From positions 570,001 to 602,000 of the forward strand of contig JAXLZO010000001.1 of NCBI GenBank assembly GCA_046350815.1: a stretch of DNA of 32,000 nucleotides, read 5' to 3'. The position numbers and the translations under genes were made by a program. Each line of letters begins with the position of its first letter. The first letter of the stretch is position 1. The notes under the pieces were generated by a model. It saw only the letters and a program-made list of their open reading frames with translations. It ran no database searches and was not told the DNA's origin. Of this stretch, positions 15,009 to 15,305 are shown one piece after another. Origin of the DNA: Candidatus Saccharimonadota bacterium (GTDB lineage Bacteria > Patescibacteriota > Gracilibacteria > BD1-5 > UBA2023).

Positions 15009-15036
15009 TTGTACTTTTCTTAAAATCTGCTACAAT
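15009..15036 (+). promoter_or_regulatory. promoter of small RNA, module 2
   Basis: TTGTAC-N16-TACAAT with an extended -10 TGc. Confidence 0.55.
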
Positions 15037-15042
15037 GCGTCT

Positions 15043-15120
15043 GATCTCGCAAGAGATATAAAGTCGAAGGGATTAAATCTCCCAAAGAAAAGACCCCGTG
15101 CATGGGGTCTTTTCTTATTT
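15043..15120 (+). ncRNA. candidate antisense/antitoxin small RNA, module 2
   Basis: GCAA-capped hairpin ATCTC/GAGAT, then DRa ATAAAGTCGAAGGGATTAAATCTCCC, then terminator AGACCCC-gtgcat-GGGGTCT plus a T-run. Confidence 0.5.
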
Positions 15121-15222
15121 TCGAAGATCACGCAAGAGTTTCTTGCGAATTCTTCCATGCATCTTTCGGATGCTGATCTCGTAGCCAAGAATGGCGATGA
15201 GATATCTGAGGAAATTCCTCAT
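15115..15222 (-). CDS. 35-codon basic peptide MRNFLRYLIAILGYEISIRKMHGRIRKKLLRDLRK, module 2
   Basis: ATG at 15222, TAA at 15115-15117. It is a paralogue of the module 1 peptide, roughly 55-60% identical by eye. Confidence 0.5.
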   Translation of the reverse strand: MRNFLRYLIAILGYEISIRKMHGRIRKKLLRDLRK

Positions 15223-15277
15223 AAAATCGAAGGTTAGTAACTAAACCTCCCACTCCCAAGAGAATGGGAGCGAGCCG

Positions 15278-15305
15278 ATTGCATGGAAAGATAGGAGGAA
15301 GACAA
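15278..15305 (-). promoter_or_regulatory. promoter of the small-ORF mRNA, module 2
   Basis: Minus strand reads TTGTCT-N16-TGCAAT. Confidence 0.45.

Follow-up and report, generated by a model that had tools for sequence, protein, structure and literature searches.

The cassette described here, module 2, lies at positions 15009-15305 of a 32,000-nucleotide stretch of DNA (hereafter the window; positions 570,001 to 602,000 of contig JAXLZO010000001.1) and is a compact unit of two convergent genes, a small RNA (sRNA) gene on the plus strand facing a small-peptide open reading frame (ORF) on the minus strand (Table 1). Modules 1, 2, and 3 of the window are designated W1, W2, and W3, and L-numbers denote other contigs. 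A first-pass annotation had listed for W2 a promoter on each strand, a GCAA-capped hairpin, two similar direct repeats (DRa and DRb), a terminator, an ORF, and a leader hairpin, and a direct reading of the segment 12700-15600 found all of them in place. The sRNA promoter also carries an extended −10 element (TG at 15028-15029). The terminator, GACCCC-loop-GGGGTC, stands between an A-tract and a T-tract on either strand, and a terminator fold was predicted in both RNAs. Two alternative stems are possible in the leader of the mRNA, the longer of which sequesters the second GGGAG. The duplex predicted between the sRNA and this leader comprises 13 + 10 bp, and both differences between DRa and DRb appear in it as G-U pairs.

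The same layout was found elsewhere. The alignment of W1 with W2 gave a column identity of 81%, in agreement with the element-for-element match reported at first, and a 35-nt leader block has two exact occurrences in the window versus 0 expected by chance. A third and more diverged module, W3, absent from the first-pass annotation, was detected in the window (nhmmer E = 7e-30 to 2e-62), and a survey for further copies added 14 full modules in five other contigs, several of them in tandem arrays. The total thus amounts to 17 full modules in six contigs. Their anatomy is identical, and three layouts, subtypes A, B, and C, were distinguished among them. Subtype A peptides follow the pattern MRNFLRYL..GY......GR.RKKLLR..RK, with one variant starting at an upstream ATG, and subtype B peptides the pattern MKK...ELPYWKHR.......RVVK.KR; subtype C is represented by one module (L012-M2) with a 22-aa peptide, MKVVITFSVWRVQIRFEILLGK.

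As the sRNA is read from the plus strand and the mRNA from the minus strand, a direct repeat in the DNA corresponds to a complementary pair in the RNAs. Fifteen distinct DRa/DRb sequences were collected, forming about 13 specificity classes, and nearly every module has a private one. DRa and DRb are 0.92-1.0 identical within a module (0.62 ungapped in W3, which has a 1-nt bulge), and the mean identity of the cores between classes is 0.35, with conserved flanks. The C-rich block of the sRNA co-varies with its GGGAG-type target as well (AAACCCCCAC in W3, AAAACTCTCA in L4-1, and AAAAATAACTCC in L012-M1). When the duplexes of W1 and W2 were computed with RNAduplex, the two cognate pairs reached −35.5 and −34.7 kcal/mol versus −18.3 and −22.4 kcal/mol for the non-cognate pairs. 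Over 14 modules, the interaction gain upon cofolding (ddG) was on average −16.9 kcal/mol for cognate pairs (−24.5 to −11.5) versus −5.1 ± 3.2 kcal/mol for non-cognate pairs, and none of 200,000 permutations reached the cognate sum. In the window, in L004, and in L012, each taken separately, the cognate pair was the strongest for every sRNA and every mRNA, and five held-out modules, found after the hypothesis had been fixed, ranked their own partner first by row and by column. Copies with mutually unrelated DRa and DRb, which the first-pass annotation regarded as contrary to its proposal, numbered 0 among the 14 additional full modules.

Changes between related modules also occurred in concert. 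L4-1 and L012-M3 differ by an identical T->C change in both repeats (ATCTAT->ACCTAT), and W2 and L013 by an identical 2-nt insertion in both repeats (ATAAARTCGAAGG->ATAAAATCGTAGAGG). Within the paired blocks, transversions are absent from the 15 substitutions that separate DRa from DRb: 13 are transitions preserving a G-U pair, and the other two result in A-C. The binomial probability of this bias is 0.004 if the events are independent, which they are not fully. Since plain homogenization of DNA predicts no such bias, this counts against it. Cognate-specific complementarity is observed across about 13 specificity classes, and the proposal that the repeats co-vary through selection for RNA-RNA pairing specificity is supported by the duplex energies, the held-out modules, the concordant changes, and the G-U bias.

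The elements surrounding the cores are conserved. The −35 and −10 hexamers and their 16-nt spacing are kept on both sides of every module with differing spacer sequences; in L4-3 and L5A, for example, the boxes are kept and the spacers have wholly diverged. A generic promoter scan independently reported the W1 mRNA promoter and the W3 sRNA promoter. Among eight homologues, the 5′ GNRA hairpin of the sRNA contains two fully compensatory pairs (UA/CG 4:4 and CG/GC 5:3) and the terminator stem several, and one compensatory pair (C-G to U-A in L4-3 and L5A) was found in the short stem of the leader hairpin. The six pairs of the start-codon hairpin are 100% paired in seven aligned subtype-A leaders; subtype B has a different hairpin at this position, and every module has its AUG within a local hairpin. 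A scan called the leader hairpin, with the U-rich run that follows, terminator-like in each of the three window modules (13150-13123, 15274-15247, and 19976-19946, minus strand), and this structure could attenuate transcription within the mRNA leader.

The ORF is open over 31-36 codons in 16 of the 17 full modules (22 codons in L012-M2), and its stop codon falls just before or inside the terminator. The four sites at which the ORFs of W2 and L1B differ are all third codon positions, and W1 and W2 differ in length by an in-frame indel of 6 nt. Between subfamily members, 15-16 codon changes are nonsynonymous versus 6-9 synonymous, and the GY and GR.RKK motifs are kept despite these 15-16 amino-acid changes. 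L4-1 was considered as a frameshifted pseudogene, which was rejected, as an upstream ATG gives an intact subfamily-A peptide. The peptides of 31-36 residues are strongly cationic (net charge +6 to +10) and lack a signal peptide; amphipathic helices are predicted for them. AlphaFold modeled the W2 peptide as a single, featureless helix over residues 2-34 (predicted local distance difference test score, pLDDT, 83).

The reading of these ORFs depends on the genetic code of the host. With translation table 11, ORFs were fragmented, and with TGA as a sense codon the longest ORF grew from 437 to 1007 aa. Fifty-seven in-frame TGA codons were counted across eight housekeeping ORFs of the window (e.g., 23579-25006 and 28965-29960). 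Several of them stand at invariant glycines of P-loops. Invariant glycines are encoded by TGA in the Walker A motif of RuvB (GPP[G]LGKT) and in MiaA ([G]PTAC[G]KT), SecA (GRQ[G]DPG), and UvrC (DGGK[G]Q), and the code is therefore code 25 (UGA = Gly). The W3 ORF has such a UGA itself, at which the standard code would end it after 9 aa; the W2 ORF contains no UGA. The metagenome-assembled genomes (MAGs) with related loci are labelled Candidatus Gracilibacteria and Candidatus Peribacteria. In a record with the latter label (L011 12178-14406, GCA_020632315.1), a gene resembling polynucleotide phosphorylase (RNase_PH/KH/S1) was called as four pieces, which suggests that this record was annotated without recognizing the UGA recoding.

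From these sequence-based data, we consider it likely that W2 is one copy of a multi-copy, par-type, type I toxin-antitoxin-like family in a Gracilibacteria-type bacterium of the candidate phyla radiation (CPR) that uses code 25. Two convergent promoters of sigma-70 type would produce an sRNA of ~80 nt and an mRNA of ~195 nt, whose 3′ ends would be complementary over about 35 nt because the bidirectional terminator is shared. The sRNA would consist of a protective 5′ GNRA hairpin, a single-stranded variable core of 11-15 nt, a C-rich anti-GGGAG block, and the terminator. The mRNA would encode a strongly basic helical peptide of 31-36 residues, with a local hairpin already enclosing its start codon and competing leader stems taking up its GGGAG(G) element. 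Pairing in trans would proceed through two blocks, the variable core with its target and the C-rich block with GGGAG(G). Such two-block complementarity, 20-30 nt in extent, is found in all 17 modules, at −27 to +2 relative to the AUG or at codons 3-8. The core itself covers −15 to +2 relative to the AUG, or codons 3-8 in some subtypes. The whole target extends over −27 to +2 in most subtype-A modules, and over codons 3-8 plus the upstream GGGAG block in modules of subtype B and of the L4-1 type. The subtype B core is placed in the loop of the 5′ hairpin of the sRNA, suggesting that pairing begins as a kissing interaction. The duplex would occlude the initiation region and block translation, possibly with cleavage of the duplex afterwards. 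As each module has its private core, each sRNA would control only its own mRNA, and many copies could therefore coexist in a genome. The peptide would presumably be harmful when de-repressed, and the repression of translation is likewise presumed.

Several observations weigh against this interpretation. We infer the transcription of both RNAs, and their ends, from consensus boxes and terminators, and the −35 boxes of the W1 and W2 sRNA promoters (TTGTAT and TTGTAC) match TTGACA at only 3/6 positions, too weak for the promoter scan. The conserved GGGAG(G) and the AUG are 23-27 nt apart, a distance beyond that of a canonical Shine-Dalgarno sequence. An A-C mismatch is present in the core of W1 and in that of W3, the latter being also bulged, and the energy calculations restate the sequence complementarity and are not independent of it. 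The peptides gave no significant match in Pfam, NCBIfam, PADLOC, PHROGs, or PDB sequences. A Herpes capsid hit (E 0.009, below the cut-off), the only Pfam/NCBIfam hit at E <= 10, was dismissed as composition noise. Finally, the maximal mean Kyte-Doolittle score over 19 residues is 0.1-1.2, with no membrane-spanning stretch, versus 1.35-2.5 for classical type I toxins; AapA1, a lysine/arginine-rich helical peptide of ~30 aa, is the closest to the cassette peptides in hydrophobicity. The peptides are thus not hydrophobic, unlike the usual type I membrane toxin. A hydrophobic toxin is usual but not obligatory, as SymE and RalR illustrate (PMC1891008, PMC4041452). Going further, and with considerable doubt, the antisense-guarded cassettes may form a large, so far unseen class that evolved independently in Gracilibacteria-type CPR bacteria, with soluble, highly cationic helical peptides as products that do not insert into membranes and act instead on nucleic acid, the ribosome, or the host-cell envelope, with the cores as an orthogonal RNA-RNA addressing scheme of a dozen or more codes.

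The lack of a transmembrane-grade segment in these cationic amphipathic helices also suits an explanation in which the RNA architecture and the cognate antisense control hold and the peptide is a non-toxic small basic protein, binding nucleic acid or ribosomes or acting as a regulatory micro-protein, whose amount is tuned by the sRNA. The modules lie among core chromosomal genes (RNase T-like exonuclease, UvrC, SecA-like, and RuvB-like) with no obvious mobile element, and blastn searches of plasmids and phages returned no match to them, which would fit such a role. A protein of this kind would not be expected to form numerous, rapidly diverging paralogues in one genome with a private sRNA for each, or tandem arrays of mixed subtypes, nor to leave an orphan sRNA next to a degraded ORF. 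The high amino-acid divergence described above also speaks against it, and the triple lock on translation (start-codon hairpin, leader stems, and antisense RNA) is typical of dangerous products. We therefore regard a non-toxic protein as unlikely.

It is quite improbable that the peptides are leaderless cationic antimicrobials, bacteriocin-like or host-attack peptides of an epibiotic or predatory CPR cell, with the sRNA as an off-switch until they are needed. Their length, charge, predicted amphipathic helix, and lack of a signal peptide would fit, members of this CPR group live in attachment to other cells, and a type IV secretion system (T4SS) pilin gene lies between W1 and W2. This adjacency is limited to the window, however, genes for export, immunity, or processing do not adjoin the modules consistently across the six contigs, and we know of no bacteriocin locus with private antisense control of each copy. 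Even less credit can be given to the view that the modules are non-functional repeated DNA, similar to miniature inverted-repeat transposable elements (MITEs) or repetitive extragenic palindromic (REP) sequences, in which DRa and DRb resemble each other through recent internal duplication or gene conversion. The modules do occur in tandem arrays and in intergenic regions rich in dispersed hairpin repeats, but the G-U-keeping differences free of transversions, the cores that diverge at most positions between conserved flanks, and the retention of promoter boxes, compensated terminator stems, and ORF in copies otherwise 40-60% diverged speak against it, and neither terminal inverted repeats nor target-site duplications were seen.

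A toxin-antitoxin-like cassette is also favored by what remains of decayed copies. An orphan sRNA gene in L012 (10013-9866, minus strand) belongs to the specificity class of L4-3 and L5A and is followed by only the last ~7 peptide codons, a pattern of decay expected if a toxin gene is lost before its antitoxin. A second sRNA-like gene without an ORF of its own, akin to the neighboring subtype-C sRNA, was seen at L012 ~10830-10715 (minus strand). The orphan sRNAs of L012 look like cases in which the toxin gene decayed and the antitoxin was retained.

Table 1. Positions of the cassette elements in the window, of associated repeats, and sequences of the variable cores in all classes.
Feature	Position	Strand	Sequence or remark
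W2 sRNA promoter	15009-15036	+	−35 TTGTAC 15009-15014, 16-nt spacer, −10 TACAAT 15031-15036; read directly
W2 putative antisense sRNA, ~80 nt	15043-15121	+	Predicted fold and predicted ends
W2 sRNA 5′ GNRA-capped hairpin	15044-15057	+	ATCTC-GCAA-GAGAT
W2 DRa, variable core	15058-15070	+	ATAAAGTCGAAGG
W2 C-rich block	15074-15083	+	TAAATCTCCC; 3′ of DRa
W2 bidirectional intrinsic terminator	~15086-15121	both	Common to both transcripts
W2 ORF	15222->15115	-	MRNFLRYLIAILGYEISIRKMHGRIRKKLLRDLRK; 35 aa + stop, peptide subfamily A
W2 start-codon hairpin	15207-15221	-	UGAGGA-AUU-UCCUCA; sequesters UG of AUG
W2 DRb core	15221-15233	-	ATAAAATCGAAGG; abuts/overlaps AU of AUG
W2 GGGAGG block	15242-15251	-	TAAACCTCCC; second sRNA-target block in leader
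W2 mRNA 5′ leader hairpin	15247-15275	-	CUCCCA-loop-UGGGAG, then second UGGGAG; stem arms 15253-15258, 15265-15270
W2 mRNA promoter	15305->15278	-	−35 TTGTCT 15305->15300, 16-nt spacer, −10 TGCAAT 15283->15278
W1 (module 1, paralogue)	12888-13181	both	sRNA ~12918-12999 (+); mRNA promoter 13181->13154 (-)
W1 DRa	12938-12952	+	AGCCTAAAACTTAGG
W1 DRb	13098-13112	-	AGCCTAGAACTTAGG
W1 ORF	13097->12993	-	MRKFLKYLFALRGYEIRRVHGRAQKMLIRELRGK; 34 aa under code 25, ending ...RELRGK; ATG at 13097
W3 (module 3)	19699-20007	both	sRNA promoter 19699-19726; sRNA ~19729-19816 (+); mRNA promoter 20007->19980 (-)
W3 DRa	19750-19762	+	CATAGCACTGAGG
W3 DRb	19920-19933	-	CATAGGCACTGGGG
W3 ORF	19922->19827	-	MKFLKEFWF[G]RIFFRYEFVLILTRKNNRDKR (full: MKFLKEFWFGRIFFRYEFVLILTRKNNRDKR); in-frame UGA, codon 10, = Gly
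REP-like unit in tail (example)	15369-15384		GAATCAAGTTCAGGAT; tail units recur off-module at 13600, 15954, 19521, 22441
~60-nt block, L005	1040-1100, 420-480
~60-nt block, L012	11290-11230, 10880-10810, 10390-10310
Core W1			AGCCTARAACTTAGG
Core W2 and L1B			ATAAARTCGAAGG
Core L013			ATAAAATCGTAGAGG
Core W3			CATAG(G)CACTGRGG
Core L1A and L011			TACATCCGTAT
Core L4-3 and L5A			CATATAACGARAGG
Core L4-1			ATCTATAAAAGAG
Core L012-M3			ACCTATAAAAGAG
Core L012-M1			CACTTGTAAAGGAG
Core L4-2			CAAGGATGAA
Core L4-4			TTCAATAGAGAC
Core L5B			TTCTATGCAG
Core L012-M5			CTCGAAGAAG
Core L012-M2			GTATTTGGTGG plus ATGTGATAAC

The extent of the unit was reconsidered. The similarity between W1 and W2 was reported to continue for ~85 bp past the minus-strand promoter (15306-15388), from which a copied unit of ~380 bp was proposed. 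The similarity exists, but it is made of dispersed REP-like hairpin repeats that are also present away from the modules; the size given was overstated, and because of the nature of this tail the functional unit is ~300 bp. The tail probably does not belong to the functional cassette. Short repeats of this type crowd the intergenic regions near the modules and were also seen in contig L001. In the window, GATCCCCGCCTCCGCGAGGATGA occurs six times (13280, 15451, 15954, 19521, 20133, and 22441), GAATCAAGTTCAGGAT three times (13250, 13600, and 15369), and ATTCCCG....CGGGAAT hairpins are found at 15515, 15914, and 16018.

The members outside the window were reached by several routes. A 23-base leader pattern had 0 hits in a first genome scan and in a viral scan. 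A leader pattern led to the metagenome contig L001, with two modules, and an architecture-based pattern to two Gracilibacteria MAG contigs, L004 and L005. The nhmmer profile found W3, a tandem array in L004, and a second module in L005. An exhaustive HMMER search with the window peptides against 1.84 billion representatives retrieved four over-extended gene calls, each with a family member as its last 35 residues, and these led to the loci L011, L012, and L013, with six more modules and the orphan sRNA gene. Candidates rejected as chance matches were the viral contigs L002 and L003, obtained with a relaxed leader pattern and without module features, and L006-L008 (Deltaproteobacteria, Elusimicrobiales, and Gemmatimonadales), three of the five genome-scan hits, in which the nhmmer profile finds no module. 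None of four peptide versions was present in an exact-sequence look-up in a 15-billion-protein collection, and the 41-aa extended ORF found no candidate in a word-indexed homology search. No Rfam family reached the gathering threshold in the window, with only sub-threshold noise in 12700-15700 at E <= 10. Gene finders miss the peptides or fuse them to the translated in-frame leader (...PIPLGVGGLVTNL...), producing spurious hypothetical proteins of 46-231 aa (P0002-P0005), and the family is therefore invisible in current annotation. These tiny cassettes of recoded Gracilibacteria-type bacteria form a previously undescribed family.

The arrangement of the copies varies with the contig. L004 1-1590 contains a tandem array of one partial and four full modules in which subtypes A and B alternate. 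The array has a ~370-bp period, and a strong hairpin, CCCCTCTCCCAGAGGGAGAGGGG, stands between the modules. In the L005 and L012 genomes, a conserved block of ~60 nt with a UUCG-loop hairpin, CCACTTCGGTGG, precedes each sRNA promoter (Table 1), and in L005 this block was also observed upstream of an unrelated small ORF.

The neighbors of the modules are chromosomal genes encoding an RNase T-type exonuclease, a T4SS pilin, a GIY-YIG protein, and UvrC, and SecA-, RadA-, RuvB-, MiaA-, and FtsH-like ORFs were found further out in the window. The T4SS-pilin-family gene (13775-14230) separates modules 1 and 2, and a gene for an 801-aa multi-pass membrane protein without a Pfam match (16688-19129) separates modules 2 and 3. 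A search for strain variants with the pilin gene retrieved contig L009, which is 100% identical to the window and gave no allelic information. The sole clear mobile-element gene of the window encodes an IS1595 (ISXO2-like) transposase (26393-27124), 6 kb from module 3 and 11 kb from module 2.

Among known systems, the closest in design is par of Enterococcus faecalis pAD1 (Fst/RNA I-RNA II) and its relatives (Fst/Ldr superfamily; Rfam par RNA II). In the blueprint drawn up by Weaver, convergent promoters flank a bidirectional terminator whose loops start the interaction, DRa and DRb sequester the initiation site, and a stem-loop is found at the 5′ end (PMC7472228). All homologues reported here share with par the convergent promoters, the bidirectional terminator common to both transcripts, and the oppositely transcribed DRa and DRb, and the cassettes resemble it in having a short antisense RNA, an mRNA of ~200 nt for a ~33-aa peptide, and a 5′ stem-loop on that mRNA. 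As in par, two direct-repeat blocks would pair away from the overlap and over the initiation region, and repeats that differ between paralogues would restrict control to the cognate partner (PMC7472228, PMC8594479). The DRa and DRb of par are also poorly conserved among loci, and RNA II of pAD1 gives no protection against RNA I of a chromosomal paralogue (PMC7472228). In T1TAdb, the geometry of this blueprint is listed only for Fst/RNAII and SprA1/SprA1as (PMC8594479).

The cassettes differ from par in other respects. Their peptides have no sequence or profile similarity to Fst or Ldr and lack the PXXXG(C) hydrophobic domain, being cationic along their whole length, and subfamily A has no proline-containing hydrophobic domain as found in Fst peptides. 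Unlike RNA II of par, their RNAs match no Rfam covariance model, and the host is a recoded CPR bacterium, not a Firmicute. The conserved 5′ GNRA hairpin of the sRNA is not a par feature, nor is the arrangement of some subtypes in which the core stands in the sRNA hairpin loop and targets codons 3-8. By eye, no clear YUNR U-turn, the terminator-loop motif that initiates the kissing complex in par, was seen in the terminator loops of W1 and W2 (CUGCAG and GUGCAU); not every par homologue has this motif (PMC7472228).

Other type I systems share single traits with the cassettes. In SprA1/SprA1as of Staphylococcus aureus, the antisense RNA likewise overlaps the 3′ end of the mRNA and acts in trans on the initiation site via a non-overlapping 5′ region (PMC8594479, PMC7472228), but PepA1 is a membrane peptide of the Fst family, and there is no homology to the cassette peptides or RNAs. 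The duplicated loci zorO-orzO and zorP-orzP of E. coli O157:H7 are related in principle, as swap mutagenesis showed that a few variable nucleotides (V1) in the pairing region set cognate repression (PMC3919570), and the private cores of the cassettes would decide the partner in the same way. The zor/orz loci, in contrast, are divergent, have no shared terminator, encode a hydrophobic toxin, and comprise two paralogues differing by 3 nt versus about 13 unrelated cores here. AapA1/IsoA1 of Helicobacter pylori also forms multi-copy chromosomal modules in which mRNA folding is reported to lock translation (PMC6733600), but its antisense RNA is fully overlapping and cis-encoded (PMC8594479), and no sequence similarity to the cassettes was found.

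In a literature search, no publication was found that ties type I toxin-antitoxin systems to Gracilibacteria, and among the papers listed none ties them to CPR/Patescibacteria. The cassettes would extend the biology of RNA antitoxins to ultra-small, recoded, host-dependent bacteria, in which regulatory RNAs are nearly uncharted, and would show the elaborate par layout to have emerged, or to have been retained, in combination with entirely unrelated peptides and RNAs. Their ~13 natural specificity classes constitute a covariation data set for the rules by which sRNAs discriminate between targets, and the private cores are a possible source of orthogonal translational repressors. With regard to the systems compared above, the cassette would work like a par-type type I locus and is a member of no described family; the family and its host lineage are new, and par and zor/orz had already established the principle of paralogue-specific pairing (PMC7472228, PMC3919570).

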